From: an uncultured Ignavibacteriales bacterium
GTDB lineage: Bacteria; Zixibacteria; MSB-5A5; GN15; FEB-12
Length of the DNA stretch: 64,000 bases
Direction: 5' to 3'
NCBI GenBank assembly: GCA_964520865.1
Contig: CAZFOY010000002.1
Span: 2,278-66,277 of the forward strand
The notes beneath the pieces are model-generated. The model was not told where the DNA came from. It made no database searches and worked only from the letters and a program-made list of their open reading frames with translations. Below are positions 21,347 to 51,400 of the stretch, piece by piece. Position numbers and translations under genes: made by a program. Every line of letters starts with the position of its first letter. The first letter of the stretch is position 1.

Positions 21347-21350
21347 ATGA

Positions 21351-23415: not shown

Positions 23416-23418
23416 AGG

Positions 23419-24288
23419 CTACACCTCCCTCTTGTTGAAGAGGTCGCGGACGACGTCGAAACTGAACACCGGTCCGTCTTTACAGATAAACTTGGGGCCG
23501 AACTGACAGTGACCGCACAGTCCGATTGCGCATTTCATATTACGTTCCATCGAAACATAGATATTCTCAACCGGGACGCCTCGTTTCTGGAGCGCCAGGA
23601 CGGTATAGCGCATCATCACCTCCGGTCCGCAGATCATGGCGATGCAGCCTGAAGGGTCGAAACTTGTTCTCGGAATCAAGGTTGTGACAACCCCGACATT
23701 CCCGCGCCAGCCTTCATCAGCCCGGTCAACCGTAACCTCCACGTCCAGGTCGAACCGTGCCCGCCACTGCTCCAGCTCCTGGCGGAACAGGATATCCTGA
23801 GGTGTTCGGGTACCGTACAGCAATACCACTTTCCCGTATTTGTCGCGGTCGGCCAGAATTTGATAGAGGGCCGGACGAAGAGGTGCAAGGCCGATACCAC
23901 CGGTGATCAGCACGACATCTTTGCCAAGGGCCTTGTCGGTCGGCCATCCCGCACCGAACGGTCCGCGAATTCCAACCGTATCGCCAACGGCAAGGCGGCG
24001 GAGCGCTTTGGTGACAGCACCGACTGCTCTGACGGTATGAACGAGGGGATTCGGCTGGGTCGGATCACCACTTATCGAAATCGGGACTTCACCGACACCA
24101 TAGATATACAGCATATTAAACTGTCCCGGTTTGAATTCGAGGCCGTCAGAACCTCCGATTGCCGTCAGGTCGATCGTGAACGTATCCTCGGTCTCCTTGC
24201 GGACCCGCTGGATGCGATACATGCTGGGGCACATGGCGTCGAGCGCGCTTGTCCCCGATTTGCTTGGGGCTTTAGGGTTGTACGCCAT
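23419..24288 (-). CDS. hydrogenase gamma subunit, FAD/NAD(P)-binding oxidoreductase with C-terminal 2Fe-2S
   Basis: Ferredoxin-NADP reductase-like fold (GGIGLAPLR) and a C-terminal CAIGLCGHCQ cluster motif. Confidence 0.85.
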   Translation of the reverse strand: MAYNPKAPSKSGTSALDAMCPSMYRIQRVRKETEDTFTIDLTAIGGSDGLEFKPGQFNMLYIYGVGEVPISISGDPTQPNPLVHTVRAVGAVTKALRRLAVGDTVGIRGPFGAGWPTDKALGKDVVLITGGIGLAPLRPALYQILADRDKYGKVVLLYGTRTPQDILFRQELEQWRARFDLDVEVTVDRADEGWRGNVGVVTTLIPRTSFDPSGCIAMICGPEVMMRYTVLALQKRGVPVENIYVSMERNMKCAIGLCGHCQFGPKFICKDGPVFSFDVVRDLFNKREV

Positions 24289-24733
24289 AAATATCCAACA
24301 ACTGAATTCGCAGGGCCAGAAGTTCGTCCTCCATGAGGTGAACGAAGCGTCTCATGATTTCGTAGCCGAGTTCATGGTCTTCTTCGCACTTACGCCTCAG
24401 ACAGGCTCCGTCGAGTGCAATCGCACGCGTCAGTTCCATCGCGCGGCAGTCGAAGTGTCGAAGGTGCGGGGCGACCAGCCAGGACCATCCAAGGACGCTG
24501 CCTTCACCCAGCGTCTGAACGACAATGCCTCCCTTGTGCGGGCGAAAGACTTCCAGAGCAAGTCTTCCGTGACGGATGAAATAGAACTGATTTGCTTCAT
24601 CCCCCTCGTGAAATACATAGTCCCCTTCATCGAAACGGACGTTTGAGGCACAGCCCATCAGCAACTCGATATGTCGACTTTCCATCCCTTTGAGGAAAGG
24701 GTGTTCGGCCAGATACGGCTCAAGCGTTTGCAT
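24272..24733 (-). CDS. standalone cyclic-nucleotide-binding-domain protein (about 153 aa, no HTH)
   Basis: I start at the ATG at 24733 (GGAGG 6 nt upstream) rather than the track start. cNMP-domain pattern FLKGM...[22 protein letters not shown]...[12 protein letters not shown]...CRA. Overlaps the beta-subunit stop by 14 nt and the gamma-subunit start by 17 nt. Confidence 0.8.
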
Positions 24734-25901
24734 TCGGTACCTCCATAGACTCTGATCCTTTTGCCTGTCCTGCGTCCGTTTCACGGATCGCACGCAACTC
24801 TTCGGTTATATCGATGCCGACCGGGCACCAGGTAATGCACCGTCCGCAGCCTACGCATCCGGGGGTGCCGAACTGATCTATCCACGACGCCAGCTTGTGC
24901 GTCATCCACTGGCGGTAGCGGGCTTTGGCCGACGGTCTGACCGAGCCGCCGTGGATGTACGAGTATTCCATCGCAAAACAGGAATCCCATCTTCTGATCC
25001 GCTCGGCCGTGGAGCCGGACAGGTCTGTCAGATCCTCGACGGTAGCACAGAAGCAGGTGGGGCAGACCATGGTACAATTCGCGCAGGTGAGACATCGCCT
25101 TCCCACTTGATCCCAACGACGGTTGTCGACATTCCGATAGAGCAGTTCCTTCATGTCGGAAGTGTCGAGAGATCGACCCATCTGTGATGATGTTTCGGTC
25201 AGCTTCTGCGATTCCGTTTTCAACTGCTCCTCGGTTGCTTTCACCGCCGGCAGAACGTTCAGCAGCCTCCGCCCTGCGTCCGATCCGGCAGACGCGATAA
25301 AGTAGTGCGTTGTTTTGCTGTAGATCTCCGTGAGAGCAAGGTCGTATCCGTCCGAGGCCGAAGGTCCTGTCCCCATCGATGCGCAGAAACAGGTCCCACC
25401 CGCTCGCGTGCAGTTGACGACAATCAGCAGCAGATTGTCGCGCGTCCGCTTGTACAACGGATCGACGAATTCGCCCTGCATGAATATCTTATCCTGGATC
25501 TTGATCGCGGCGAGTTCGCAGGGACGAACTCCGAAAAAGGCAAGCTTTGCTGACGCTGCCTCGGGACGTTCCACTTCGAACCCGGTCTTTGTTCGTTTCA
25601 GGCGATTGATCTGCTGACGAGGGGGGAAGAGATAACGCTTCCAGGACTGGCCGCCCACCGTGAAGTCGAACGATGCCTTGTTCCCGGATGGTTCGAGCTT
25701 GTAGCTGGCCGGCTCCTGGCTGTCTGCCCAGCCCGATGGCAACGACTCCAGGGCGTTGATCTCGTCGAGCACGATTGCGCGCTCCCGAACGATCGGCCCG
25801 ATCACGCTATATCCTTCCGATTTGATAGCTGCCAAGAGTTTTGGCAGGTCATCACGTTCGATTATCAGCTTGTCTTTGGTTTTTCGAGTTTGGGGACTCA
25901 T
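24720..25901 (-). CDS. hydrogenase beta subunit, 4Fe-4S protein (AsrA/HydB-like)
   Basis: Two ferredoxin-type motifs ([16 protein letters not shown]; [12 protein letters not shown]). First gene of the beta-gamma-delta-alpha arrangement known from sulfhydrogenase-type enzymes. Confidence 0.8.
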
Positions 25902-27198: not shown

Positions 27199-28929
27199 TC
27201 AGATCCTGAACTGCGCAACCATCTCCTTCATACCTTCGGCCTGTCGATTGAGTTCTTCGGCCGCCGCCGCCGACTGTTCAGCTCCAGTTGCAGTCTCCTT
27301 TGTAACCGAGGAGATGTGCTCGATATTCCGGGAGATCTGCTCGGCCGCAGAAGACTGCTCTTCGGTAGCCGTCGCGATCTGTTGAACCATATCCATCACC
27401 CGCTGCGACATCGCAACGATCTCGGTCAGACTGCCGCCGGCTTTGTCGGCGAGTTGACGACCATTGTCCACTTCGGTAATTCCTGCTTCCATGGAGTGAA
27501 CGGCATCGGTCGTTTCATTCTGGATCCCCTTGATCATGTCGGTGATCTCGCCGGTCGCTTTGCCCGTTCGTTCGGCGAGCTTGCGCACTTCGTCGGCAAC
27601 GACGGCGAATCCGCGGCCCTGTTCGCCTGCTCGGGCGGCTTCGATCGCCGCATTCAACGCCAGCAGATTTGTCTGGTCGGCAATGTCATCGATGACGCTG
27701 ATTATCTCGCCGATCTGGTCGGCCGATTTCGCAAGTTTGCCGATCGAGTCCGAGGAGAGGCGGACAACTTCGGCGATCCGCTGCATGCCGTGAATCGTAT
27801 CCCCGACAATCTGTCCGCCCTGGGTGGCGTTATCCGAGGCGTTCTTCGCGCCATCCGAAGCTTCGGAAGCATTCCGTGAGGATTCGACGATCGTCACGGT
27901 CATCTCTTCGACCGCGCTCGAGATCTGTCCTATCTGACCGGCCTGCTGTTGGGCTCCCTTGGACATCTGTTCCGAGGAGGAGGAGATCTCACTTGCCGCC
28001 GAAACCAACTGGGTGGCATTGTCATTCAGCTGGCGAACCATCTGTTTCAGATTCGTCGTCATCTTGTTCAGAGAAATAGCGATCTGGTCCTTCGCCGAGA
28101 TTGTTTCTTCGACCGCCTTAACCAGCGTGCCCACTTCGTCACTTGAGTACTTTCCTATCTTCACGATTTCCGATTGTCGGACCTGATGAGTGAGGTCGTT
28201 GGATGCTACCGCATCGACGACTCCGACGAAGTCATGGAACTCGGCGTTCATCTGGTTGCTCAGTTCCACTACCTTTTGAATCGGTTTCGAGATCCGTCGG
28301 GCAATGACCCAGCCGATGAGGGTGCCGACCACGAGCGCTACAATTCCGAGAGTCATGATCAGCTGGAAAGCGCTTGCTTCGTGATGTTCGGCTCCGACCG
28401 TGACGCTATCCAGTCCGTGCGATACTTTGGCCAGGACATTCTCCACCTCCGTATCGAAATTGTCGGCGTTCTTGAGAACTCGTTCGAAGAAGTCTTTGAA
28501 TTCGGAGTTGTCGTTGGACTTCTCCGCCATTTGTATCAATCGTTGGGCACTGTCGTCAAAAGTAGTGTAATCGGCTTCGAGTTTCTTGAGGGCATCGAGC
28601 AGTCCAAGCGAAGTCAGATTCTTGCTGCTCGCGATCATCGACTCGGCCTCATCCAATTCCTGTTTGAGTTCTTTTCCCTTTTCTTCGTAAGTGTTGAGTT
28701 CTTCCGGCTGCCGGTCGAGCAGGTATCCTCTCAAGTTGCTTTCCTGGGTGAGGGCCGCTGCCTCGGCGTTGGTGATTTTCTCGTTTAGCGGTACGTAAGA
28801 TGTAGCTATCTCGGTCACGGCGTCGCCGATGAGCCCCATCTTCCAGTCCGAGACGAGAATCGTGATTGCAAGTACTGCTAATACGAAGCAGAACCCGGCC
28901 AGGATTTTTCCACCGATCTTCATTTTCAT
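27199..28929 (-). CDS. methyl-accepting chemotaxis protein (2 TM, periplasmic helical sensor, HAMP, MCP signalling domain)
   Basis: Highly conserved signalling hairpin [35 protein letters not shown]. Confidence 0.9.
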
Positions 28930-29452: not shown

Positions 29453-31315
29453 CTACATCGAATTCAGAAATCCGACGAGATTGACCTGCTTATTGTTTAC
29501 GCCCAGCTTGTTTCTGATCTGCTGTCGGAATTTGTGTACCGTCAGAAGGGAGATATTGAGGGTGTTGGCAATATCCTTGGAAGAAAAGCCGCTCTTGATC
29601 ATCTTGCAGATCTCAACCTCGCGAGGGGACAGCTTGGCGTACTGCTTTTCAAGCCGGTTGATGAAAGGGGAAGTGATGTCATTGAGGCACGATTCGAGAA
29701 AGTGAAGGTATGATTTGTTGGTGTCATCGGCTCGTTCGTAGAGAGTCTGCAGAACGGGCACGATAAGCCGGTCGACGTTTGCCTGGATCTGACGCTTGAT
29801 CTGTTCTTTCTCGTCGCCGATCTGCAGCAGGATTTCCTTCAAAGCCGAGTTCTTTTCCTCCAGCACCTGTTCTTCCCGCGCAAGCTTTTCGTTGGTAGCC
29901 TGGAGTTCCTCTTCAATCTGCATGCGTGAAGTTATATCTCGGCACTGAAGCAGCGAATAGTGCTCCCGGTGGACCGTGATGGAGGTTACCGATGATTCGA
30001 AATCAACGAATTCTCCATTGGCATTCTCGCACCGCCAGATGAAATCACCTGCCCAGTCGCGTGATTCCGAGGCGGCGTTGAGCGCTTCCCGGGCGGATCT
30101 TCGGTCGCCGGGATGGACCCGTTTGACGAGAGCCTCGAGATCCGAGGGACAGAACCCGAAGAAGCTGAGGCAGGAGGGGTTGGCCATGAGGATCTTGCCT
30201 TGACTATCGATCATCACAATCATCTCCCGGGAATTATTGAAGATCAGCCGAAGTCTCTCTTCGCCCGTGCGCAGATGAGAGAGCTGTTCCTCCGTACCGG
30301 TAATATCCCTGAAGCCTGCTACAACGCCGGTCACGTGGGAGGCAACATCGTGAAGAGGATAGAGGACAAGTTCAAGGGTCCCGGCGGTTGTTCTTCCCAA
30401 CAGGCCGGTCGGGGATTGAAGCCGATGGATTTCGAGGTTCAGGCGAATACTCCTGCCTTCGTGAAAGACCTGCTCGACAGTTTCGTCGAATCCGAGCTCA
30501 TGGATCGCCTGATCGAGCAGGATATTGAAGCTTCGCTCGTTTTCACTGAGATTGAAGAACCGGACGCAGGCATTGTTCATCCAGACGGTGCTTCCGTCCC
30601 GGTCGGTAATGAGATACGGATCAGGAGCCTGTCGGAGGGCATCGACCGAAGCTTCGCCTTGAGGATCACTTGACGAAGTAGATCGACCAAGCAGGTCCGG
30701 GTGTTTTGAAAGGGAAGCAGCGATCGAGGAGACGAGCGTACGATCTAGGTCGGTCCAGGGCTCACCTTCGGTCGTCCTGACACAACCGACGATAGCGGAC
30801 AGGTTATCGCCGTCGCAGATGCCGGCGCAGATCACCGCTTTGGTCCCCCTCGTTTCCAAAATCGCCTTGAGCCCGAACGCTTCTTTCGGTAATTCGGTCA
30901 ATGATTCGAAAGCCAGCGTCCTGCTCTCCTCCAATCGGTCAACTATCCATTGAACCGTGGCCGCGGGCACCTGGTCGATACCGATGGCGTGTTTCTCGAC
31001 CGATGACTGATACCAGCCGTAAGTACGGTCGAAGAATCTCCCATCATCGGAGAGCTGAAAAATGAGGCACTTTTCGGATCTGGTCAGCGTACACAATTCA
31101 CGCAGAACGTTTTCGATGTGTGCGCCATTCGGGTGTTTCGACAGATCGAGCAGGGCGCTCGTAAGGTCAATGAGCCAGTTCTCATCGCACCGGGCGATGT
31201 CGGAGGCTGGAGCCGGGCTTGACTCCGGACCTCTCGTAAACTGCATCTTTTGAGAAACTCTCGGCTTTCTGTCCTTCGTCGTTGGCACTATTGAGCTTCC
31301 GCCTGTCTTGCGCAA
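29453..31315 (-). CDS. GAF/PAS sensor LuxR-family transcriptional regulator
   Basis: C-terminal LuxR/GerE HTH (LSPREVEICKMIKSGFSSKDIANTLNISLLTVHKFRQQIRNKLG). Upstream PAS-like repeats and a coiled coil. The track start is TTG; an ATG alternative lies at 31246. Confidence 0.85.
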   Translation of the reverse strand: MRKTGGSSIVPTTKDRKPRVSQKMQFTRGPESSPAPASDIARCDENWLIDLTSALLDLSKHPNGAHIENVLRELCTLTRSEKCLIFQLSDDGRFFDRTYGWYQSSVEKHAIGIDQVPAATVQWIVDRLEESRTLAFESLTELPKEAFGLKAILETRGTKAVICAGICDGDNLSAIVGCVRTTEGEPWTDLDRTLVSSIAASLSKHPDLLGRSTSSSDPQGEASVDALRQAPDPYLITDRDGSTVWMNNACVRFFNLSENERSFNILLDQAIHELGFDETVEQVFHEGRSIRLNLEIHRLQSPTGLLGRTTAGTLELVLYPLHDVASHVTGVVAGFRDITGTEEQLSHLRTGEERLRLIFNNSREMIVMIDSQGKILMANPSCLSFFGFCPSDLEALVKRVHPGDRRSAREALNAASESRDWAGDFIWRCENANGEFVDFESSVTSITVHREHYSLLQCRDITSRMQIEEELQATNEKLAREEQVLEEKNSALKEILLQIGDEKEQIKRQIQANVDRLIVPVLQTLYERADDTNKSYLHFLESCLNDITSPFINRLEKQYAKLSPREVEICKMIKSGFSSKDIANTLNISLLTVHKFRQQIRNKLGVNNKQVNLVGFLNSM

Positions 31316-37483: not shown

Positions 37484-38233
37484 CTATTTTTTACGTCTGC
37501 GAACGATTCCGGTACCCAGCAGGCCAAGACCGAACAGGAGCATTGTCCCCGGTTCAGGTACGGCAGTCGTGAAGTTCTCTTCCATCAGGTCATTGCCACA
37601 GCCGACATTGACGTGGAAGGACAAACTGTTGAAGTTTCCGAGCAGCGAACGGTCAAACTTCAATTCCCAAACGTACGTGTCGCCGTTTCCGGGAGACATG
37701 TAGTTCGTCTCGAGATCCGGGGCGAAAGTCATCATCGAATTGACCGAACCCAGAAGATTCCCTTGGGCCATTTCATGAGCGCCGGCGGCGTTTCTGATGG
37801 TCGAATTGCTGTAGTAGCTGTGGGGATCCTGCTGAATGTAGTTCCAGCTGTTTACCTGATACAGGCCGGTATTGTTGCCGCCTGCAGTGAGATCGACGGC
37901 ATACTGATATTTGTTGCCGCCGTCGACACCGATAAACAGATCGCCGAGTCTGAACCCTTCCTGGGAATAGCCAAATGAGTTCGTCAGCGATACGTAAACG
38001 AAATCCTGGTCTACCGCCACATTCAGACCTTCAAGATCGAATGCCTCACCGCCCGGATTGTATGAACCGGGGGAAGGCTGGTGGCCTATCCCGTAAGGAT
38101 AGCTGATGGGAGCCCAGTTGTTGTTGTGGTCGAAGATGTGGTCCTGTCCAAAGTCGTAGTAGGTGTAGCTGAAGCCGAAAGCCTGAACTGACACCAGCAT
38201 GAGGGCCGCGACCAGAATTACAAGTTTCTTCAT
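37484..38233 (-). CDS. PEP-CTERM sorting-domain secreted protein
   Basis: Signal peptide. C-terminal VPEPGTMLLFGLGLLGTGIVRRRKK is a canonical PEP-CTERM motif plus TM plus basic tail. Confidence 0.85.
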   Translation of the reverse strand: MKKLVILVAALMLVSVQAFGFSYTYYDFGQDHIFDHNNNWAPISYPYGIGHQPSPGSYNPGGEAFDLEGLNVAVDQDFVYVSLTNSFGYSQEGFRLGDLFIGVDGGNKYQYAVDLTAGGNNTGLYQVNSWNYIQQDPHSYYSNSTIRNAAGAHEMAQGNLLGSVNSMMTFAPDLETNYMSPGNGDTYVWELKFDRSLLGNFNSLSFHVNVGCGNDLMEENFTTAVPEPGTMLLFGLGLLGTGIVRRRKK

Positions 38234-38248
38234 AATATCTCCTGTACT

Positions 38249-38290
38249 GCAATTGATTATATTCGTCCAGTCCTACCTATAGCAATTGAT
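38249..38290. repeat. two exact copies of GCAATTGAT, 33 bp apart, bracketing the promoter above
   Basis: Copies at 38249-38257 and 38282-38290. A third exact copy in inverted orientation lies at 51326-51334. Confidence 0.6.
38256..38285 (-). promoter_or_regulatory. candidate sigma70 promoter of the PEP-CTERM gene (-35 TTGCTA, 18 nt, -10 TATAAT)
   Basis: Consensus -10 at 38261-38256. AGGAG RBS downstream. Both core elements abut copies of ATCAATTGC. Confidence 0.45.
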
Positions 38291-38566
38291 ATGCCGCCTA
38301 TCGGTGCTCACGAGACGATATGTATCTCTTTTGAATACAGAGACTTACGCTACCCAATCCGGTTTTCAAGAGACGATAGTGGCAAGCCGTTGCACAATGT
38401 TTGCGAAAATCACGATTCCATACGGGTGCGTTGCATCAGTTGTAGCTCGGTGGAATTTAAGGCGATAGACCTCCCGTTTCTTCATCTTGAAGCTGCTGAA
38501 AGCAGGTAAACTACAGCAATTGTGGTGTCATCTCACGGTTGGGCTGTCACAAAAAAAGGAACTACC

Positions 38567-39838
38567 GTGAGAATATTTGGTCGCAAGAAACTGCCGATTC
38601 CGCCTGCTACCGCCGCGATGAAGAATCCGGCAACAGTATTAATGGGGAACCAACCAGCGGTCGGACGGAAAAGCATCGGTCGGTATTTGCCGGGACTGCC
38701 TGTGGATAGCGGCTTATCCCGGAGGAACAAAATAATGCTCTACCGCTTCCTCGCGGACGAGATCCCGGTTGTGCAGGCGTGCGTGGCTACCTGGGTGAGG
38801 ATGAGCACCGCTCCCGGAAAGTATGTGATTAATCCCGATGTCTCAGCCGCGGTCCGGAAGCGGGCCGACGGGAAGCTGAACGAGCTTGCCGACCGACTCA
38901 ATTCGCACGAGCAACGAAGGCAAGGAAGCCTGGTCACGTTTCTCGCCGAGCTGTTTCAAGGGCTGTACCGTGACGGAGCATTCGGTGGGTTCCTCAGGGT
39001 GAGAGAAGATGGGATTGCTATCGACCGATTTCAACCTGTAGACACTTCGTCGGTCATACTGGACTCCACGAACGGTCAACGTCGGCTTCTGTTCGAAGGA
39101 AAAGATCAGTTGCTATCGCTCGACAGCCCTGATTTCTACATGCTGTCATTCAATTCCGATGAAACCCGTCCGCTCGGTCGATCGATCCTGCAAACCATTC
39201 CGTTCGTAGCGTACATTCAGCAGCAGCTTGTCGATGATATGCGGAGGACAAGTCATAACGCGGGCTATCATCGGCTGCATGTCAAGGTAACCCCTCCCGA
39301 ACGAATCTCCGGCGAGTCGGACAAAGCCTACATCGATCGGATCAACAGCTACTTCGACTCCACTGTCTCGATGATCAAGTCATGCCGGATCGATGAGAAC
39401 CCGGTGACCTGGGACAATGTTGCCATCGATCATATCGGTCCGGAGAACGTACGGGCCGTTACCAACAGCTGGTTCATGAATCATCGGGCGATGGTCGAAG
39501 AAATCTGCGCCGGAACCAACCTCGCTCCATTCATGCTTGGTTATTCGTACGGTGCCACTTCGACATGGTCGTCGTTCAAGTTCGATCTGGCGATGAGACA
39601 GGTGCGTTCGGTGCAAGCCGAGGCCGCTACTTTCCTTGAGTGGATCGGAAACATTGAATTGACTCTCGCCGGCATTCCCGCAACTTGCAGCTTTCACTTT
39701 GACAACACCTACGCATATCAAGCAACCGATGCCTCGGCGATTCGGGCGCGAGAGGTCGATGGCCTGCTCAGACTGTTCGAGTCAGGTCTGATCGACGAAG
39801 CCACCGCCCGCCAGAAAGCCCAGCAGCTGCTTTCGTGA
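38567..39838 (+). CDS. phage portal-like protein (putative)
   Basis: Translationally coupled (GTGA) to a terminase large subunit. About 420 aa. The N-terminal LYRFLADEIPVVQACVATW region is reminiscent of Mu gp29/DUF935-type portals. Start uncertain: GTG at 38567 with AAGGA 6 nt upstream, or the track start at 38522. Confidence 0.45.
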   Translation: MRIFGRKKLPIPPATAAMKNPATVLMGNQPAVGRKSIGRYLPGLPVDSGLSRRNKIMLYRFLADEIPVVQACVATWVRMSTAPGKYVINPDVSAAVRKRADGKLNELADRLNSHEQRRQGSLVTFLAELFQGLYRDGAFGGFLRVREDGIAIDRFQPVDTSSVILDSTNGQRRLLFEGKDQLLSLDSPDFYMLSFNSDETRPLGRSILQTIPFVAYIQQQLVDDMRRTSHNAGYHRLHVKVTPPERISGESDKAYIDRINSYFDSTVSMIKSCRIDENPVTWDNVAIDHIGPENVRAVTNSWFMNHRAMVEEICAGTNLAPFMLGYSYGATSTWSSFKFDLAMRQVRSVQAEAATFLEWIGNIELTLAGIPATCSFHFDNTYAYQATDASAIRAREVDGLLRLFESGLIDEATARQKAQQLLS

Positions 39839-41163
39839 CGATTGCCGAACAGGTCGACTGGCGCCTGGCCCTGGCCGATCCGGTTCACTTCGCGGAAGCA
39901 GTGCTCGGAATCAGCCTGCACCCGGGTCAGAAGAATTGGCTTCGTGAATCAATATCACACGAGAACCTGCTCGTTACAGGGAATCGGTGGGGAAAATCGT
40001 TTATCTGCGCGGTCAAGGCGCTTCATCGGGCGGTCTTTCGATTACGCGATATCAAATATGATACTTCCCGCAAATACCGCATTGTTACCGCCTCGATCAC
40101 GCAAGACCAGGCGAATATCGTTTTTGACCGAGCCGTCCGGCTGCTTCGTGAATCCGAGCTGCTCCATCCTTTCATTCTCACACTGACGAGATCCCCCTAT
40201 CCGCGATTGGTACTTTCGAACGGCGCGGTGCTCGAGGCGCGTTCGACGCAGAATCGGGGAGAGTATCTTCTTGGTAACGACTATGATTACTTCATCTTCG
40301 ATGAAGTCGCGTTCGAGAGCGATCCCGACTATGTCGTCGAAGAGGTCATCAAAATGCGCCTTGCCGACCGTGAGGGGATGCTTGATCTCGTCTCCACGCC
40401 GAATGGTCGAAACTGGTTCTACCTCCGCGCACGCGAAATAATCGAACGAAAACGGCCCGGGTACTTTCAGTCCGGGGATACCCGGGACAACAAATTCATT
40501 TCAGAAAGCGCAGTTCGGGCACGAATCGAGTCGTTCTCCGACCGCAGAGTTCAGCAAAACATCATGGGGAAGTTCGTCGACAGCGGCGGCGAGATTCTCA
40601 AAGGTGAATATGTCGATCGCGCGTTGGAGAACGCAAAGCGCATCGGGCAGGGAGCTGATTCGACCCGCTATTTTGTCTCGGGATGGGATCTTGCTCGCAA
40701 GAGAACTGCCACGGTTGGTGTGACAGTCTCGGTTGAAAACGGACACGCACATGTCGTCTGCCTGGAGCGATTTCGAATGTTCGACTGGAACGTGGTCATT
40801 GAGAAGATCCGCCAGCGCCAGGAAGAGTACCCCGGAGAACTGGTCGTAGATGCTACCGGGCTGGGTGATGTCGTCGTTGAGCAACTCCGGGATTACCGAC
40901 CGACCGCCGTAATCTTCTCGCCATCGACCAAGGCAGAACTGCTCACCAATGTCGAGCTTTACCATGCCCGTAATCTGCTGTCATACCACCGCTGGGAATT
41001 GCCGGATGGACCGGGGCGGATCTGGTCGCTCGAAGATGAACTTCGCAAGGCGCAGTGGGATGACAATTCAGAATGCGATGCCCTGATGGCATTAGCCCTC
41101 GCGCTGTGGCCGCTCAGAAAACGCAAGATGATTGCACCACTGCCCAGAGTCGGACGAGTGTAG
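39835..41163 (+). CDS. phage terminase large subunit-like protein
   Basis: Walker A-like GNRWGKS, Walker B YDYFIFDE, coupling motif STP. The C-terminal RNase H-like nuclease has acidic motifs GWDLA, VVDATGLG and CDALMALALA. Confidence 0.85.
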   Translation: MTIAEQVDWRLALADPVHFAEAVLGISLHPGQKNWLRESISHENLLVTGNRWGKSFICAVKALHRAVFRLRDIKYDTSRKYRIVTASITQDQANIVFDRAVRLLRESELLHPFILTLTRSPYPRLVLSNGAVLEARSTQNRGEYLLGNDYDYFIFDEVAFESDPDYVVEEVIKMRLADREGMLDLVSTPNGRNWFYLRAREIIERKRPGYFQSGDTRDNKFISESAVRARIESFSDRRVQQNIMGKFVDSGGEILKGEYVDRALENAKRIGQGADSTRYFVSGWDLARKRTATVGVTVSVENGHAHVVCLERFRMFDWNVVIEKIRQRQEEYPGELVVDATGLGDVVVEQLRDYRPTAVIFSPSTKAELLTNVELYHARNLLSYHRWELPDGPGRIWSLEDELRKAQWDDNSECDALMALALALWPLRKRKMIAPLPRVGRV

Positions 41164-45600: not shown

Positions 45601-45829
45601 GCGCGCCACCGATCATATCAAGCAGGGGAAAATAGACCTTGTGATTAATATTCCGAAAGACTATCGCAAGGAAGAACTGACCAACGATTATCTCATTCGT
45701 CGCACGGCGGTCGATTTCAAAGTCCCGCTTATCACCAACCTTCAGTTGGCACAACGCCTCGCTGAGTCCCTTTGCCGCGTTCCGGTCGAATCGCTCCGGG
45801 TGCAAAGCTGGAACAGATACGGGGAGTAA
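42614..45829 (+). CDS. carB: carbamoyl-phosphate synthase large subunit
   Basis: Duplicated ATP-grasp halves and an MGS-like C-terminal domain. EFDYSGSQA near the N-terminus. The GTG at 42614 has GAGAGGA 6 nt upstream and overlaps the carA stop. The TTG at 42596 is the alternative. Confidence 0.95.
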   Translation: MSRPEFADRHLPETVLVLGSSALKIGEAGEFDYSGSQAIKALQEEGIRTVLINPNVATIQTSEHLADEIYFAPITPRFVEQVIADERPDAIMLGFGGQTALNCGVELYRSGVLQKYEVKILGAPIESVIDTEDRERFVSRLNEIEVKSPRSISTVSVEEAVEAAGKIGFPCMARVAFALGGLGSGICRDEGQLRDLAQRAFAHTTQLLVEEYLEGWKEIEYEVVRDRFDTCVTVCNMENLDPMGIHTGESIVVAPSQTLNNDEYQMLRDIAIRVIRHLGIIGECNIQYALSPDSRDYRVIEVNARLSRSSALASKATGYPLAFVAAKLALGKSLAEVRNSVTQVTMACFEPALDYVVVKAPRWDLNKFHGVSTRIGSAMKSVGEVMAIGRKFEEALQKALRMIQTGAAGLVENPTITFDDLSKSLREPTERRIFAVADAIRAGMSACEIHNITHIDRWFIDKIANIVEIDTELKSSGVHGLDRRLMLRAKQHGFADLQIARATGTNEDKITGMRRSWELRPRIKQIDTLAAEYPAVTNYLYLTYNGTEDDISFGQEGGVMILGPGAYRIGSSVEFDWCCVNAVRTLRQLGYRTLMVNYNPETVSTDYDECDRLYFDELSFETVSDIYHLEQPIGLILSMGGQIPNSLALRCTEAGMRVLGTSARNIDRAEDRHKFSSLLEKLELPQPEWREVSSLEETHHFAESVGYPVIIRPSYVLSGAAMAVAGNSEELTEYLNKAVKVSPEHPVVISKFIENAKEIDVDAVARDGELVVWAVSEHVENAGVHSGDATLVLPPQRTYLETMRRIRKICTQVASSLSINGPFNIQFLARHNQVMVIECNLRASRSFPFVSKVLKTNFIEAATRVIMGRPVQETGKSFLELDYVGVKAPEFSFSRLEGADPTLGVEMASTGEVACLGWDFDEAFLKALIAVGFKFPLKSVLLSSGPIESKAAFLESAHGLKTLGVEFYATQGTADFMRQHGFDVTVLKWPLEDGEPRATDHIKQGKIDLVINIPKDYRKEELTNDYLIRRTAVDFKVPLITNLQLAQRLAESLCRVPVESLRVQSWNRYGE

Positions 45830-45911
45830 TCCCCGGCAACGCAAATCCTGTGATCGAACCGGAACCTGTAGTCATCGCTCCGAGGCGCAATCAGAAAACC
45901 GGAGAACGGAC

Positions 45912-46529
45912 TCAACGGATTATCGAAACCTGTTCGATGTCATCCAGCGGTACTTCAACTTTGCCGCCGTTGTTGCTACCCACGAGTCGCCACTCGTTCT
46001 TGAAACTTAGCGTAGGTTGATCGAGCACGGTGGTTTGTTTCTTTCCCTGTGCGTTCATTCGCTCGAGTTTGAGACGTTGTCTGCCCCTGATCGCCGCGTT
46101 GATGAGCATCGAAGACAGAATCTCCGAACAGTCGCTTACCTTTGCCACGCCGGCAAGCTGCTCCTCGTAGGCATCGAGAATCTCCTCCAGCGGATGCTCC
46201 TGACTTGAAATCAATTTGGAGATCAACATCTCGATATTGCCCTGATACCTGTCGCCAAGGCCGGCCGCGAGCAAACGCAGGCCGGAGACGAGCATGACCG
46301 CTTCATCCGGTCCGAGTGCAACCCCCTGGCTTTTGTTCCGCTGATACAGCCGGTACGCCTTGAGCCGCTTGTCGTATACGACCGGGAAGTTCGCCTCGGA
46401 GATGTCGTTGATGTATCGGTAGGCGGTTCGTTCCGGGACTCCACAAACTCGCTCGATCGTCTTCAGGGTGACCATCGGTCGATTCGTGAACAGATTAATA
46501 AGAGTGAGGATTCTACTTAGTTTGTTCAT
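45912..46529 (-). CDS. HTH (DeoR/YafY-type) regulator with WYL-like C-terminal domain
   Basis: N-terminal LSRILTLINLFTNRPMVTLKTIERVCGVPERTAYRYINDI is a winged HTH. C-terminal ...FKNEWRLVGSNNGGKVEVPLDDIEQVSII resembles the WYL beta-barrel. At 205 aa it is shorter than typical YafY proteins. Confidence 0.55.
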   Translation of the reverse strand: MNKLSRILTLINLFTNRPMVTLKTIERVCGVPERTAYRYINDISEANFPVVYDKRLKAYRLYQRNKSQGVALGPDEAVMLVSGLRLLAAGLGDRYQGNIEMLISKLISSQEHPLEEILDAYEEQLAGVAKVSDCSEILSSMLINAAIRGRQRLKLERMNAQGKKQTTVLDQPTLSFKNEWRLVGSNNGGKVEVPLDDIEQVSIIR

Positions 46530-46578
46530 ATTCGATTGCGGGAGGCGCGTTTTGTGCGCCCCCCTTCCTTCGCTCAGT

Positions 46579-46839
46579 CTACAAGACTATATTAACGAGT
46601 ACATTGAATACATCCAGATAGCTGATTCCTTCGGGTGCGATCGAGTAGGTACCTCCGGTGCCCGTCGTATCGGTAACCACACCGTTTGAAGTCCCGGTTG
46701 TGTCGGGCGTCGGACACGGCGGATCGCCGCCGTCACCGGCGAGAGCGATACCGGGAAGCAGCCCGGCTGCGCAGAATTGAATTACAAGAATTACCAGTCC
46801 GATGATGATGCTGTGTTTCAGTAACTGATCTCTTCTCAT
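46579..46839 (-). CDS. small secreted/membrane protein (86 aa), Thr/Gly-rich with duplicated DTTGT motif
   Basis: GGAGG lies 5 nt upstream of the ATG. N-terminal hydrophobic segment ends ...GIALA/GD. Mature part reads PPCPTPDTTGTSNGVVTDTTGTGGTYS..., with a hydrophobic C-terminus. Confidence 0.55.
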   Translation of the reverse strand: MRRDQLLKHSIIIGLVILVIQFCAAGLLPGIALAGDGGDPPCPTPDTTGTSNGVVTDTTGTGGTYSIAPEGISYLDVFNVLVNIVL

Positions 46840-46882
46840 TTCTACCTCCTCTTGAAGTTGGTGCGTTCTACAAGTGGGGGTA

Positions 46883-46899
46883 TATCAAAACGGCTGCCA
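46883..46899 (-). promoter_or_regulatory. sigma54-like promoter element TGGCAG-N5-TTTGA
   Basis: The minus strand reads TTGGCAGCCGTTTTGATA. GG and TTG have the correct -24/-12 spacing, but the -12 is GA instead of GC. About 45 nt upstream of the small-protein ATG and just downstream of the EBP-type gene. Confidence 0.3.
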
Positions 46900-47105
46900 A
46901 CGCGGACGCGCTCACATCGCTCGTGCTATGACATTCGATGACAGTGGATTACGAGAAATTGCCCGCTGCTGACTAATAGCGGATTAACCAATTCTATTCA
47001 GGCGGTTGATTCGTCAAACGGGTAACTTGTTGATAGACATGCCGACGACAATGCCGGAAGATGGGTGCAAAGTTGGGTAATTCGGTAATCTGAAGGGGAA
47101 AAAGG

Positions 47106-50100
47106 CTAATCTTTGAGGTGATATTTCTGAATTTTATACTGTAGCGTGGCGTAGGGCATACCAAGAGCCTCGGCGGTCCGCTTCACATTCCCTTTGTTCT
47201 TGATTAATGTCGCGCGTATCGTCTCTTTCTCAATCTGTTCTTTGAGCTTTTTCTTTTGCTGCGGGTCGTTGAAGGCCCGTTGCATTGGGGAAGGAAGATC
47301 GGTAAGCTTGACCTTCTCGCCGGCCTGGACAACACAGAATCTTTCTACGACGTTACGGAGTTCGCGCACGTTGCCGGGCCAGTCGTAGCTGAGGAAGGCC
47401 ATCCGCACATCATGCTCGAACACAGGTGGACGGTGACCGGTCGAGAAAAGCTTGACGAAGTGCTCTAGGAGTAACCTGATATCGTCGATGCGTTCTCGGA
47501 GCGGCGGGATTTCGAACACATATCCGCTGATACGATGGTAAAGGTCGCTGCGGAAGGTCCCTTCATCGATCATTTTCAACAGATCCTTATTGGTCGCGTA
47601 GATGAACCGGATATCTGTCTTGAGCACTTTGTTGCTGCCGACACGCTCGAACTCCTGGTACTCGACAGCACGGAGGATCTTGGCTTGGGCTGCGAGCGGC
47701 ATGTCGCCAATCTCGTCAAGGAACAGCGTCCCTCCATCGGCGGCTGAAAATTTTCCGTCGCGTGCCGCGACACCGGTTGCCGCGTTGCTCGCGACACCGA
47801 AAAGTTCACTTTCGAGCATGCTCTCAGGAAGCGCCGAGCAGTTGAGTTTCACCAGAGGACGATCCTTGCGATCGCTCAACCGGTGAAGATACTCGGCTAC
47901 GATTTCCTTGCCGGTGCCACTTTCTCCAAGTATCAGCACTGGCAGGGAGAACCGGGCGATCTCCGGAAGCCGGTCGAACATTTTCTGAACGGCACGATCC
48001 TGCGTGATGAACCGGTGCGCCCCGATCTGCTTGTTGATATCTTCAACCAGCTGGCGGTTAATGACGCTCATGTCGCGATAGCTTTCGATTGCCGAAAGCA
48101 TCAGGCCGATGAAATTGGCGATTGATCTGATGTACGTTACATCGTCCTGCTCGAACAAGGCCGGAATCGTGTGGTGATCCAGATAGAGCACGCCCAGCAG
48201 TTTATCTCCGTGCATGATAGGCAGGCAGATGACCGAGAGGATGTTGTGCGCCACGATGCTACGGTAGTCTTTAGTCCGCTTGTCGGTTACGGCATTGTCG
48301 AGAATGAGCGGTTCGTGCTGATGGGCCACCTGTGACGGAACTCTCATGCTGATGTCGGCGATGTCCCGAAGGCTTTCGTCGTCGCAATTGACAAACGCCT
48401 TCACCCGTAGCTCGTCGGACTGACTCGCCTTTTCAAGAATTACCCCTCGCTCCGCGCCGGTCTGATCGACGGCAAAACGGACAATCTGTTCCAGTGAACG
48501 ACCATAGTCGTCAATATGCTTCAGAATCTCGGATATGCCCAGCAGTGAGGCAACGATTCGCCCGATATTTTCCTCAGGGTTTTCAACCGTGTCGATTTCT
48601 GATTGCAGACCGGCCATCATAGGTTTGTTCTTCAATTGAGTGGCATGTCTCAGCGACTGAATGAGGAACTTAGTCCTTAGTTTCCCTCGACCGGACTTGC
48701 CGTACTCCAGGGCAATTCTCCGACAAACGATCATAGCGGCGAACGTTCTGCCCGCGCCGGACAGAATGCGATAACAGGATTTTAGCATCAAGAGCAGTTG
48801 CTCAGAATTGACCTCACCGTTCATGAGTGGCTTCAATTCTTTAAGTACGGCGAATATCGGAATCTCGGCGGTTTCGATCAACGGCTCGAGCGTGGCTGTC
48901 GTTTGCTTCAGGTCATCGAATCGAGTTTCGTTTTCATCCATCAGCATGTAGAAGAGGCAGTAGCCAGCGTCCCACACTGCGTCGTACTCTATCAGACTCT
49001 GCATGAGCGGCAGCAGATCAGGCGGAGGTTCAGTGGTATTGAATTTTCGGTTGGTCGAGACTACCAACTCCAATTCCTGCTGGCATCTCTGGTTATCGAT
49101 CCTTTCGAAAATATGGCGGGCGGACTCGGCGTATTCCGAAACTTGTTGAGTATTCCCTTCAAAGCAGGCGATTTCGGCAAGAGCCATATAGATGTGTCCC
49201 TCTGTCAGAGCGACCATATCGTTTCTTACCAGGTCCAATGCTATCATTGCTGCTGATTTCGCTTGTTCCAGGGAGCTGCGTGTTTTCTCCAAAACCAAAA
49301 GGCTGTAGTAGTACGTTGCAAATTCGCGGTGATCCATTTCCGAGGCATAGTTGCTCCAGACTCTGCTGAGCCAGTATTCCGCCTTTCGATATTCACCGAG
49401 CCTCAGATAGCAGAAGCCGAGGTGTCTCCACATTTCACGCTCCCGCCAGCGCTCCGATCCCTTTATCGCGTCCATCGTCAGCACGGCTCTTGCCGTTTTG
49501 ATGGTATCACCCGGCCGGTACATGGTGCGAAGGCATGAGACCAGGCCGGCTGCCCCCCGAAGCGCTTCGCTTTCGAGACGAACATCGCGGGCAACCTCAT
49601 AACTCTTGCGAAACTGCATCTCGGCGTCGGCCGTCCTCCCCTGGGTGAAAGCGGCATAGCCAAGCACATAATGGTTGGTCGAATCGAGCAAGGGCGAGTC
49701 GAGTTCCGAGGAACGTTCCAGGATCGTCCGCATGGACTCCTCAACCTCGGCGAATTTACCTTCCAGGCAGAGCACCAGGGCACCAAGAGACTCGAATACC
49801 AGCTCCATTTCGAGGGAGTGTGCCTTTCTCGCCTCGGCCATGCCGAGCTCAGCGAGATCAGCACCATACTGATTCGGCCTGATTCCGAACGACCTCGGTA
49901 TGAGACGATAGACGAGATCCAGGTCGACCGCGTTTCTGGACTGCTGCAGCCGGACCGCTTCATCCATCAACGAGACGCACTCACGCCGTAGGCCCATTTG
50001 TAATGCGAGATCAGCCGATTCTTTCAGAACTCTTTCAAGCAATTCCGTGCTCAGCTCGAGCTGCTTTTCGATATGAGCCTCCCGGATCGCCTGATAAATC

Positions 50101-51293
50101 AGCAGGGCAGGCTCCGGGATGTCGCGATCTGAGAGGTCATTCGCGGTTCGAGCGGCTTCACTCACGATTTCCTGCGATGTAAGCGTGCATTGAGCGGGGA
50201 TCAAGGCATGCCCCGCGCTTATCTCTGAAGCGGCATTGTACACTTCGATGAGCAGATTGCCGGGTGGAGCCAGGTACCAGTACTCCCCGAGCCTCTTGAT
50301 TGCGCTCTCCAGGGCGATTCGCCTGAACAAAGCAAAGGCCTGGCGCTTCGAATTGCGCAGGATATCCTGAAGGCTGTCGACCAATTCGGTTCGGAGTCCC
50401 AAAATCTTGCAGGCGTCCAGCAACGACTTCTTGATGCCGGCGTTCTCGATCTGACGCACACCGGTCTCACGGTACCGATTGAGAAGTATGATCCCCGCGA
50501 GCTTACGCTCTAATTCGGCATGTCGCTTTTGGTCGACGAACTTGTACTTGAGTAGCGTGTCTATGAGCACCCTTGGCCGATGCAGCGGATCCGCGCTCGT
50601 CAGTTCGTCCGCAAGTTCCCTGAGCCTCGAGACATCAGCTTCGACATCGTGAGCGGTCCGATCAAGCGACTCCTCGATCACTTTTTTGAGCATCATGCCG
50701 ATGGAAAAATTGTCCGATTGAATCAGAATCGTCTCATTGTTGAGAATCTCCGGCGCGATGTGATCCGGGCTGCCGACAATTCGAGCCTTCGGGTAGGAGC
50801 CGGCTTCACACATGAAGTCGAGGTCGATAAGGCGAATCCGTGGAACACCTTTCGAATCTGAGGGGCCAACTATGAAATTGCTCAGTTTCAGGTCACAGTG
50901 GACAAACTGAAGGAAGTGGAGATAGTCAATTGTGAGAAAGAGTTCCGGTAGCAGGAGATCAAGGCGCTCCAGTAACAACGATCCGGTGAGAACCTGCCAT
51001 CGATCCTCGTCGAACTTCGGATACTCGATGAACAATACCCCGTTCTCGACACACTTAGCCCGGGCGGTCAGGACCCGTGGATTTCTTATGCCGCGCTGGC
51101 AGGAGTAAGAGTTGAGTAGAACATTTCGCTTTTCATCGGTCGGAATAGTGCTTTCCGGATTGACCGTCTTAACAAAACAGGGATACCCGCTGGCTGTCGA
51201 CTCGGCGATCCAGGATTGACTCAAATCGTTGGTTGAAAGAAGATGGACGAAGTGGTATTTGGTGCTGACAGGGTCTGACATGGTAGCCGCCAC
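47106..51293 (-). CDS. Ser/Thr protein kinase - helical/TPR - GAF - sigma54-type AAA+ - Fis HTH fusion regulator (1395 aa)
   Basis: Kinase motifs: CFVKTV (Lys), HCDLKLSNFIV, IDLDF, GSPDHIAPE. GAF: ...LSVICLPIMHGDKLLGVLYLDH. AAA+: VLILGESGTGKE, GGTLFLDEIGDM, WPGNVRELRN. C-terminal HTH: GNVKRTAEALGMPYATLQYKI. GTG start; ATG alternative at 51281. Confidence 0.85.
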   Translation of the reverse strand: MAATMSDPVSTKYHFVHLLSTNDLSQSWIAESTASGYPCFVKTVNPESTIPTDEKRNVLLNSYSCQRGIRNPRVLTARAKCVENGVLFIEYPKFDEDRWQVLTGSLLLERLDLLLPELFLTIDYLHFLQFVHCDLKLSNFIVGPSDSKGVPRIRLIDLDFMCEAGSYPKARIVGSPDHIAPEILNNETILIQSDNFSIGMMLKKVIEESLDRTAHDVEADVSRLRELADELTSADPLHRPRVLIDTLLKYKFVDQKRHAELERKLAGIILLNRYRETGVRQIENAGIKKSLLDACKILGLRTELVDSLQDILRNSKRQAFALFRRIALESAIKRLGEYWYLAPPGNLLIEVYNAASEISAGHALIPAQCTLTSQEIVSEAARTANDLSDRDIPEPALLIYQAIREAHIEKQLELSTELLERVLKESADLALQMGLRRECVSLMDEAVRLQQSRNAVDLDLVYRLIPRSFGIRPNQYGADLAELGMAEARKAHSLEMELVFESLGALVLCLEGKFAEVEESMRTILERSSELDSPLLDSTNHYVLGYAAFTQGRTADAEMQFRKSYEVARDVRLESEALRGAAGLVSCLRTMYRPGDTIKTARAVLTMDAIKGSERWREREMWRHLGFCYLRLGEYRKAEYWLSRVWSNYASEMDHREFATYYYSLLVLEKTRSSLEQAKSAAMIALDLVRNDMVALTEGHIYMALAEIACFEGNTQQVSEYAESARHIFERIDNQRCQQELELVVSTNRKFNTTEPPPDLLPLMQSLIEYDAVWDAGYCLFYMLMDENETRFDDLKQTTATLEPLIETAEIPIFAVLKELKPLMNGEVNSEQLLLMLKSCYRILSGAGRTFAAMIVCRRIALEYGKSGRGKLRTKFLIQSLRHATQLKNKPMMAGLQSEIDTVENPEENIGRIVASLLGISEILKHIDDYGRSLEQIVRFAVDQTGAERGVILEKASQSDELRVKAFVNCDDESLRDIADISMRVPSQVAHQHEPLILDNAVTDKRTKDYRSIVAHNILSVICLPIMHGDKLLGVLYLDHHTIPALFEQDDVTYIRSIANFIGLMLSAIESYRDMSVINRQLVEDINKQIGAHRFITQDRAVQKMFDRLPEIARFSLPVLILGESGTGKEIVAEYLHRLSDRKDRPLVKLNCSALPESMLESELFGVASNAATGVAARDGKFSAADGGTLFLDEIGDMPLAAQAKILRAVEYQEFERVGSNKVLKTDIRFIYATNKDLLKMIDEGTFRSDLYHRISGYVFEIPPLRERIDDIRLLLEHFVKLFSTGHRPPVFEHDVRMAFLSYDWPGNVRELRNVVERFCVVQAGEKVKLTDLPSPMQRAFNDPQQKKKLKEQIEKETIRATLIKNKGNVKRTAEALGMPYATLQYKIQKYHLKD

Positions 51294-51371: not shown

Positions 51372-51400
51372 AGTATAGTCAATTGAGTTCTGTTAATCAA
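51372..51400 (-). promoter_or_regulatory. candidate sigma70 promoter of the kinase-EBP gene (-35 TTGATT, 17 nt, -10 TATACT)
   Basis: Read on the minus strand. Both hexamers overlap or abut CAATTGA motifs. Confidence 0.4.

Follow-up and report, generated by a model that had tools for sequence, protein, structure and literature searches.

The 64,000-nt stretch of DNA analysed here, referred to as the window, belongs to a contig of an uncultured bacterium named Ignavibacteriales and placed among the Zixibacteria by GTDB (CAZFOY010000002.1), and it encodes on its minus strand a very large enhancer-binding protein (EBP), followed by a short open reading frame (ORF) and a gene for a small helix-turn-helix (HTH) regulator. 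The question raised by this locus is whether the three genes form one regulatory unit, and whether an EBP with an unusual activator loop may act on the sigma-54-type promoter that lies directly downstream of its gene. Comparison with related loci makes it reasonably probable, in our estimation, that the genes constitute a self-contained unit of enhancer-dependent regulation, a cassette kept throughout Zixibacteria. The EBP gene (47106..51293, minus strand) is a 1395-aa ORF with a conserved start, MSDPVS, at 51281 (1391–1395 aa), and is separated by a spacer of exactly 266 nt (46840-47105) from the 86-aa small ORF (46579..46839, minus strand, ATG at 46839). A Shine-Dalgarno sequence, GGAGG (46845-46849), lies 5 nt 5' of this ATG and is invariant in four orthologous spacers. 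The regulator gene (45912..46529, minus strand) encodes 205 aa from a conserved start, MNKLS, at 46529. A preliminary description of this DNA had proposed the same arrangement, and every feature that it listed is present on the minus strand, including the length of the spacer, the GGAGG ribosome-binding site and the 86-aa ORF with a hydrophobic N-terminus and a duplicated DTTGT motif.

The same order, comprising the EBP gene, a spacer of approximately 260–270 nt, the small ORF, a gap of 38–81 nt and the regulator gene, recurs elsewhere. A layout of a ~1,390-aa EBP, a ~265-nt spacer, a 67–92-aa signal-peptide protein and a ~205-aa HTH regulator was found in at least 25 loci; the sequence-supported set consists of 23 non-redundant loci together with the near-duplicates L001, L015 and L022, with one further locus (P0123) represented by gene calls only. 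A metagenome scan with a regulator profile yielded 19 loci, and a 67–92-aa ORF of matching architecture was present 5' of the regulator in every scanned locus with enough upstream sequence. Where the loci extended further, the EBP was found upstream of the small ORF across a spacer of 224–273 nt, mostly 259–273 nt. A start from EBP representatives instead led to the three-gene set again, in L013, L033, L034, L035, L036 and the P0123 locus, with unrelated flanks. Two regulator orthologues (79% and 63% identity) are carried on large contigs with a synteny identical to that of the window, namely malQ, a glgB-like gene, the EBP, the small ORF and the regulator, followed on the opposite strand by carB, carA and a terminase-like ORF; the metagenome-assembled genomes of these syntenic relatives carry the name Zixibacteria and, in one case, the label Ignavibacteriales. 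Across the loci the neighbouring genes outside the cassette vary, and all cassette members with a named organism are Zixibacteria. A literature search found no paper describing the cassette. The comparison of loci, in which both the small ORF and the gene order are conserved, thus confirms the three-gene unit as a genuine cassette conserved across Zixibacteria.

The spacer holds a predicted sigma-54-type promoter, TTGGCAG-CCGTT-TTGATA (TTGGCAGCCGTTTTGATA), at 46883-46900 on the minus strand, with the GG at 46897-46898 and the TTGA of the -12 region at 46885-46888, from which a transcription start site is predicted at about 46873. As a single site it carries little weight, as TGGCA-N6-TTGC with at most one mismatch has 13 matches in the window compared to 12.1 expected; it is phylogenetic footprinting across the loci that makes the promoter-like site highly significant. 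In the four closest spacers (the window, L001, L004 and L005) the flanks have diverged around GGC...TTGATAT, whose columns do not vary. In all but one of the loci with usable upstream sequence, a yGGCA(C/T/G)-N5-TTG element lies 57–78 nt from the start codon of the small ORF, the exception being L033 (AGCAC, 55 nt); L027 (27 nt) was left out of the distance range since the start of its ORF had been miscalled. With the range taken as 55–78 nt, yGGCA-N6-TTG is found in 22 of 23 such loci. When 22 sites were aligned, GG was found in 22/22, the following CA in 21/22 and TTG in 21–22/22. No sigma-70-like -35/-10 pair was found when the spacer was scanned, and TTGATA and TTGGCA, both tried manually as a -35 element, had no matching -10 element. 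The sigma-54-like element of the preliminary description is thus upheld in its GG/TTG spacing and in its distance to the start codon, and the comparative findings indicate that transcription of the small ORF is probably enhancer-dependent and of sigma-54 type. Taken together, the aligned loci show a bicistronic unit downstream of yGGCA-N6-TTG(T/A), whose small ORF evolves under purifying selection and whose second gene is predicted to encode a ~205-aa HTH/WYL-like factor.

The base at -12 had been described as a deviation, GA instead of GC. The A is indeed present in the window, and it is not isolated: the 22 family sites have C in 4, A in 9 and T in 9 cases, so that 18 of the 22 are non-C, compared to a C in 38 of 42 E. 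coli sites. Judged from these alignments, the missing C is a family-wide trait and not a one-off defect. The E. coli sites of pspA and pspG (TTGTA) and of hydN (GTGAA) are bound by sigma-54, are listed as confirmed promoters and have a non-C base at -12 (PMC4591121), and such a base is therefore compatible with sigma-54 function. Matrix scoring, proposed earlier as a check, was performed with a sigma-54 matrix built from 42 intergenic sense E. coli sites (PMC4591121 Table 1). The window site reached 8.1 bits and rank 19 in the window, and the weakest of the E. coli sites 8.4 bits. Scoring of the window alone was therefore rejected as proof of a promoter, being non-discriminating, and the support for the element comes from the locus comparison instead. 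The low score, the missing C and the striking invariance of TTGATAT in the four closest relatives would also fit an operator for the WYL-like regulator or for the EBP, with transcription starting elsewhere. More distant loci, however, keep only the sigma-54-defining GGCA and TTG with exact spacing and not TTGATAT, the distance to the start codon is fixed, and no alternative promoter is detectable; we consider an operator highly improbable.

Upstream of the promoter, the spacer contains short repeats that occupy conserved positions. A tandem of half-sites, ATTACCgaATTACC, at 47076..47089 on the minus strand places ATTACC twice, at -190/-182 from the -24 GG, and is proposed as upstream activating sequence I (UAS-I) for the HTH of the EBP; a single GTTACC is found at 47021-47026. 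The exact tandem is unique within the window, is perfectly kept in L001, and has both copies changed to ATTATCC in L004. Across the family, half-sites take the form TT[GA]CC at -190/-182 and, again counted from the GG, GG[CT]AA near -157, -103 and -92. ATTACCgaATTACC fills the -190/-182 slots, and the (A/G)TTACC repeats noted earlier thus lie at positions conserved in the family. In total 48 half-sites were counted, compared to 14.5 ± 3.8 in shuffles (maximum 29 in 500). The copies vary in step between lineages (TTACC, TTATCC, TTGCC, CTGCC, CTGTCG), and the paired change of both copies is as expected for one protein reading both. Position conservation and lineage covariation thus point to putative cognate upstream sites for the HTH_8 domain of the EBP. 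An IHF-like element, TATCAACAAGTTA, matching the consensus WATCAANNNNTTR, is located between the distal sites and the promoter (47023..47035, minus strand), at -137 from the GG; the exact consensus is found at this position in the window, L001 and L013, and a looser AATC..TTA in most other loci. The proximal GG[CT]AA cluster of the family lies at about -103/-92, and the window copy, a possible inverted half-site (GCGGGCAATTT, 46956..46966, minus strand), is found at -65 and is weaker than those of L013, L017, L029 and L031. The AG(T/C)GGATTA direct repeats noted in the preliminary description are both present (AGTGGATTA at 46943 and AGCGGATTA at 46978), but were rejected as enhancer sites: conservation fails already in L001, the closest relative, whose small protein is 91% identical, and the repeats are therefore probably due to chance.

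The protein proposed to read the half-sites has the domains of a kinase-like EBP, in line with the kinase-EBP of the preliminary description. Pfam matches comprise Pkinase (residues 59–209, E 6.8e-14), TPR, GAF (933–1064), Sigma54_activat (PF00158, 1096–1257, E 5e-58) and HTH_8 (1352–1391, E 1.8e-10), corresponding on the minus strand to a kinase-like domain at 50667-51119, TPR at about 49362-49781, GAF at 48102-48497, the AAA+ sigma-54-interaction domain at 47523-48008, its lid at 47256-47498 and the Fis-type HTH at 47121-47240. NCBIfam gave only sub-threshold partial matches (NifA, NorR, PspF, AtoC), with nifA as the best, and PADLOC models of RtcR/PspF type match the C-terminal part. The orthologues align over the full length with 61% and 54% identity, and a HMMER search with the C-terminus recovered more than 100 representatives (50% identity clusters) of ~1,380–1,400 aa with a common layout. 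The AAA+ core is intact, with Walker A GESGTGKE and Walker B LFLDEIGDM, both invariant in the orthologues, and an FRxDLYHRI region. The Pkinase match is limited to model positions 45–194; K42, HCDLKxxN, D-F and APE are invariant, and the N-terminal part (LSTNDLSQSW) has no GxGxxG, so the domain may be a pseudokinase. No membrane segment was seen in the EBP. A sigma-70-like TTGATT-17 nt-TATACT at 51372-51400 (minus strand), approximately 100 nt 5' of the EBP start, is conserved in three genomes, and two further elements of the glgB-EBP intergenic region are a conserved block, CGGCAAAATCGGCCG, and an inverted repeat, GGAACAG...GTGTTCCG. The EBP is thus probably transcribed from its own sigma-70-type promoter at this position, from which it follows that the lineage uses ordinary sigma-70 promoters elsewhere.

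The first product of the bicistronic unit is predicted to be a small exported protein. The 86-aa protein has a hydrophobic N-terminus, two copies of DTTGT and a linker rich in Thr, Gly, Pro and Asp; its predicted signal peptide (46738-46839, minus strand) would be cleaved after residue 34, between ALA and GDG, and a hydrophobic C-terminal tail is encoded at 46582-46629 (minus strand). Its dN/dS (ratio of non-synonymous to synonymous substitution rates) is 0.11 relative to L001 and 0.15–0.22 in three other pairwise comparisons, values by which the ORF is under purifying selection. By inspection, the 22 aligned small proteins share a K/R-rich start, a hydrophobic stretch of ~20 aa and A-x-A followed by D/G-G, and the mature part begins with DGxGx(D/E)PP, continues in a Ser/Thr/Pro/Asp-rich linker of variable length and ends in a hydrophobic or amphipathic tail of 12–17 residues, often with one acidic residue. 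By the -3/-1 rule the A-x-A site would be of signal peptidase I type and the protein Sec-exported. A Tat signal was rejected as the RR pair is not conserved, a lipoprotein as no Cys is conserved, and a PEP-CTERM protein as there is neither a PF07589 match nor a basic residue in the tail. The DTTG duplication is limited to close relatives of the window protein. No match was found in Pfam, NCBIfam or PADLOC, word-indexed searches of 5.8 billion proteins returned 2 and then 4 clusters only, and the wider family was recovered only through synteny.

A TPR-containing regulator immediately preceding a small signal-peptide gene that is probably under its control raises the prospect of peptide signalling in the manner of quorum sensing, where an exported and processed pro-pheromone would be sensed directly or indirectly by the TPR/GAF modules of the EBP and would raise transcription of its own gene, with the WYL-like factor as the output. 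The peptides are also short and lineage-variable with conserved ends, as such autoinduction would have it. Yet no transporter, protease or importer is linked to the cassette, the EBP shows no membrane segment, and the best-conserved part of the peptide is the mature N-terminus and not a short C-terminal signal; we regard autoinduction as improbable.

Between the small ORF and the regulator gene, the GC-rich hairpin of the preliminary description is present at 46540-46564 on the minus strand (GGGGGGCGC/ACAAAAC/GCGCCTCCC), with a 9-bp stem and no U-tract. The minimum free energy of the intercistronic region is -21.6 kcal/mol (z -3.6), and comparably strong hairpins were found in 12 of 22 loci (z ≤ -2.3), with sequences unrelated between loci. 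Rfam gave no match in 45800-47300. A canonical intrinsic terminator was rejected, as the U-tract is lacking, the terminator scan did not call the hairpin, and about 10 of the 22 loci are without one. Where present, the hairpin could limit read-through or stabilise the upstream mRNA, and the peptide would therefore be made in excess over the regulator.

The regulator is predicted to consist of a winged HTH (46368-46511, minus strand), a helical linker and a five-strand Sm/WYL-like beta domain (45915-46082, minus strand). Among 15 family members, 13 showed a weak match to Pfam HTH_11 (best E 2.1e-08) and 10 to HTH_PafC, and the window regulator itself is below the Pfam cut-offs. A PADLOC WYL model (CRISPR-associated) matches it over residues 2–184 (E 1.5e-19). 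In an AlphaFold2 model the five-strand C-terminal domain has a pLDDT of about 80, and a Foldseek search of the PDB gave DriD, PafBC, BrxR and CapW as top matches, with a 70-residue local fit of 2.2 Å to BrxR chains, as well as Hfq/Sm folds for the C-terminal domain. The sole match of a regulator profile to PDB sequences, to ESCRT, was spurious and discarded. The WYL signature of the family is reduced to an invariant Trp, and the chain stops at residue 205, immediately past the final beta strand, compared to about 270–330 aa in known members, and the WCX extension is therefore missing. On the evidence of the model and the profiles, the regulator is probably a truncated, divergent HTH-WYL-type factor; the earlier WYL-like assignment agrees with the PADLOC model and with the WYL regulators found by Foldseek, and is qualified by the lack of WCX and by the Pfam result given below. 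Several public gene calls of the regulator are mis-started (L002 3365-3928, 187 aa; P0004, 217 aa, starting inside the hairpin; also L001 1103), and the conserved MNKLS start gives 205 aa. The preliminary description had pointed out that WYL-domain regulators often guard stress or defence modules; no support for such a link to defence was found here: the regulator and the EBP match PADLOC models, yet no defence genes are adjacent to the cassette in any locus examined.

Several observations weigh against an enhancer-dependent cassette with a WYL-type second product. The E. coli matrix places the window site below all 42 E. coli sites, and the hairpin is patchy, as noted above. None of the 15 regulator family members matched Pfam WYL (PF13280), and the mean pLDDT of the regulator model is 55 overall. 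The rpoN gene is absent from the 64-kb window; an lptB-like ABC ATPase at 17075 is followed by an FtsX permease gene and not by rpoN. Use of sigma-54 in this lineage is nevertheless indirectly indicated by a second site, a canonical sigma-54-type element (cGGCATatcaaTTGCT, 38282-38296, minus strand) located ~50 nt 5' of the start codon of a gene for a true PEP-CTERM protein (37484..38233, minus strand). Its cGGCAT-N5-TTGCT, with GG-N10-GC spacing, is unchanged across the window, L004 and L005, in contrast to the diverging flanks. PEP-CTERM genes are known to be linked with sigma-54 regulators, and the upstream element fits this association.

A further observation of this kind concerns the L1 loop of the EBP, and was not flagged in the preliminary description. 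In place of GAFTGA the protein has VASNAATGV (residues 1167–1175; codons at 47769..47795, minus strand) in the context ELFG-VASNAATGV; this loop has Ala in the place of Phe, is shorter by one residue and retains Thr-Gly. An NxATGV loop is common to the orthologues and to nearly all ~1390-aa family members (more than 100 clusters), and a few members still have F or Y in the loop. In PspF, Phe85 and Thr86 contact region I of sigma-54, and substitutions abolish open-complex formation (PMC3467059; PMC9770992), and the GAFTGA-defective homologues TyrR, DhaR, HupR and VpsR are regarded as sigma-70-dependent (PMC3162934). With the Phe missing, published criteria would therefore class the EBP family as not sigma-54-dependent. 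Judged by its sequences, this is a family excluded by the GAFTGA rule and yet most tightly linked to a conserved sigma-54-type promoter.

The Phe-less loop also occurs in EBPs with other sensors. One is a 1,673-aa kinase/AAA_16/TPR/GAF protein (P0156), and another a caspase-like fusion (P0146; L038 1185-3782, 865 aa) that combines Peptidase_C14, HATPase_c_4 and the EBP AAA+ domain with the loop VAHGVATGV; the kinase/TPR/GAF architecture is thus not the only one to carry the variant. Neither a small ORF nor a regulator gene was found downstream of the P0146 gene in L038. A variant cassette in L037 (5097-7389) has a 1,673-aa EBP with a full Pkinase, AAA_16, many TPR, GAF and AAA+ domains and a KVATGV loop, followed by cGGCAC-N5-TTGA, a 72-aa peptide of the cassette family, a 96-aa ORF, a 251-aa degenerate AAA+ protein and a 153-aa HTH_11 protein that lacks the beta domain.

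The family-wide loss of Phe from a shortened NxATGV loop, the published reading of such changes as a loss of sigma-54 coupling and the degenerate second AAA+ gene of L037 would all agree with an EBP that has become independent of sigma-54 in the manner of TyrR, DhaR, HupR or VpsR. It would then be a repressor, an anti-activator or a sigma-70-type activator, and the -24/-12 promoter would be fired by another, canonical EBP or be kept silent. On the other hand, every locus keeps the EBP, its half-sites and the sigma-54-type promoter in association, whatever the neighbouring genes, the ATPase motifs are intact, no sigma-70 promoter was found in the spacer, and no second EBP is linked in loci other than L037. 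The members with F or Y in the loop, in addition, argue for descent of the family from working sigma-54 activators. A sigma-54-independent EBP therefore appears unlikely to us, if still deserving of serious attention.

The loop and the promoter may instead have changed together. All 11 of the 11 Ala-loop EBPs with a known promoter are paired with TTGA or TTGT, and the Phe-retaining members L034 (NAFTGV) and L036 (KAFTDV) are both paired with TTGC. Among the 15 paired loci, both TTGC sites would coincide with the two Phe members by chance with a probability of 1/105, by a hand calculation in which phylogeny was ignored. Two Tyr-loop members have a non-C base at -12. In neighbour-joining trees the F/Y members are basal, and the EBP and regulator trees disagree on one versus two transitions; the crown-clade TTGC loci L024 and L025 have no EBP sequence and fall outside the pairing. 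Strict covariation was rejected on account of the Tyr-loop members, the unpaired L024 and L025 and the disagreement of the trees. With phylogeny ignored, the trees in conflict and two TTGC loci lacking EBP sequence, the covariation of loop and -12 base is suggestive. In published structures one L1 loop occupies the DNA groove immediately downstream of -12, at the point through which region I of sigma-54 threads (PMC9770992), which provides a physical rationale for co-adaptation. We therefore put forward, tentatively and as a possibility with the balance somewhat against it, that a large EBP clade with Ala for the GAFTGA Phe (NxATGV) still drives sigma-54 promoters and that these promoters have lost the -12 C in parallel, as a co-adapted 'weaker lock, weaker key'.

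The transcriptional architecture of the cassette is well supported by the comparison of loci, and a working scheme can be drawn for the enhancer-dependent reading. The large cytoplasmic EBP would integrate signals via its kinase-like, TPR and GAF modules and bind, through its Fis-type HTH, the half-site tandem located some 190 bp 5' of the -24 element, an IHF-like bend would bring it to the promoter, and its AAA+ ring would remodel the closed sigma-54 RNA polymerase there. The peptide, Sec-exported by a signal peptide cleavable at AxA before DG, with a DGxGx(D/E)PP N-terminus and a hydrophobic C-terminal tail, would act as the extracytoplasmic arm, either as a signal or as an envelope effector. 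The WYL-like factor would be the cytoplasmic arm, either acting back on the spacer or controlling distal genes. Three elements of this scheme are inferred: that the Phe-less loop is competent, that the peptide is exported, and what peptide and regulator act on.

In comparison with known systems, the cassette resembles those of NtrC/NifA-type EBPs (glnAp2-glnALG, NifA-nifH) in the AAA+ sigma-54-interaction domain with a C-terminal Fis-type HTH and in the combination of upstream half-sites, IHF-like element and -24/-12 promoter; it shares the GAF sensor with NifA (nifA being the best partial NCBIfam match, below cut-off). In glnA-ntrBC, too, the regulator gene lies downstream of the first cistron behind a hairpin. 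Unlike these systems, the EBP of the cassette is 1,390 aa long, begins with a kinase-like domain, contains TPR and carries an NxATGV loop in place of GAFTGA. The -12 C is usually missing, and in place of metabolic enzymes the cassette encodes a tiny peptide, predicted to be exported, and a WYL-like factor. The PspF-pspA/pspG system is similar in having TTGT and not TTGC at -12 (pspA TTGGCACGCAAATTGTA, pspG TTGGCATGATTCTTGTA), an adjacent EBP gene, assistance by IHF (here an IHF-like site) and small envelope-associated products (here predicted). PspF, however, has a canonical GAFTGA and no sensor domains, the peptide has no sequence similarity to PspA, B, C or G, and no WYL-type factor is involved in Psp. 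With TyrR, DhaR, HupR and VpsR the cassette EBP shares a sigma-54-interaction-type AAA+ domain with a disrupted GAFTGA, but these act at sigma-70 promoters, whereas the cassette EBP is linked in every locus to a conserved sigma-54-type promoter and enhancer-like half-sites. By the PADLOC WYL model and the Foldseek matches, the regulator appears to have the N-terminal winged HTH, helical linker and Sm-like WYL-type beta domain of HTH-WYL regulators (DriD, PafBC, BrxR, CapW and the CRISPR-associated WYL proteins), and differs in its 205-aa length, in having no WCX dimerisation extension, in the lack of a PF13280 match in 15 members and in the lack of linked defence or DNA-damage genes. Finally, the succession of a TPR regulator and a small signal-peptide pro-peptide gene characterizes RNPP quorum sensing (PlcR-PapR, Rap-Phr, NprR-NprX), which the cassette may resemble. 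Its differences from RNPP systems lie in the output domain, a sigma-54 AAA+ ATPase and not just an HTH, in a host phylum of Gram-negative type (FCB group) and in the lack of a linked Opp importer.

Other features of the window lie outside the cassette. Next to carA, a Terminase_6N-like ORF (39835..41163, plus strand) and an unannotated 438-aa ORF (38522..39838, plus strand) are found at an equal position in L004 and L005, which argues against a recent prophage insertion; they may represent a domesticated or fixed phage remnant. A [NiFe]-hydrogenase cluster (20849-25901, minus strand) encodes a HycI-type maturation protease, the large and small subunits, an NAD-binding/FeS subunit, a 4Fe-4S protein and a cNMP-binding protein. 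A GAF-PAS-PAS-LuxR(GerE) regulator (29453-31315, minus strand) adjoins a CHASE3/HAMP methyl-accepting chemotaxis protein (27199-28929, minus strand) as a sensory pair.

As we read it, the cassette is a phylum-wide regulatory module of an uncultured lineage, and its small peptides, predicted to be exported, form a family that had not been annotated before. It also presents a natural experiment, as more than 100 clusters lack the GAFTGA Phe, a residue held to be essential by mutagenesis and electron cryo-microscopy, and are tied to conserved -24/-12 promoters with a systematically non-consensus -12. If the NxATGV EBPs are inactive on these promoters, the cassette would exemplify an AAA+ EBP homologue that was put to a new use at a sigma-54 promoter and conserved in it. 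If they are active, it would be necessary to revise the rules by which 'true' sigma-54 activators are told apart from sigma-70-dependent homologues, and the role of the -12 fork junction in the locking of the closed complex could be probed with natural activator/promoter pairs.

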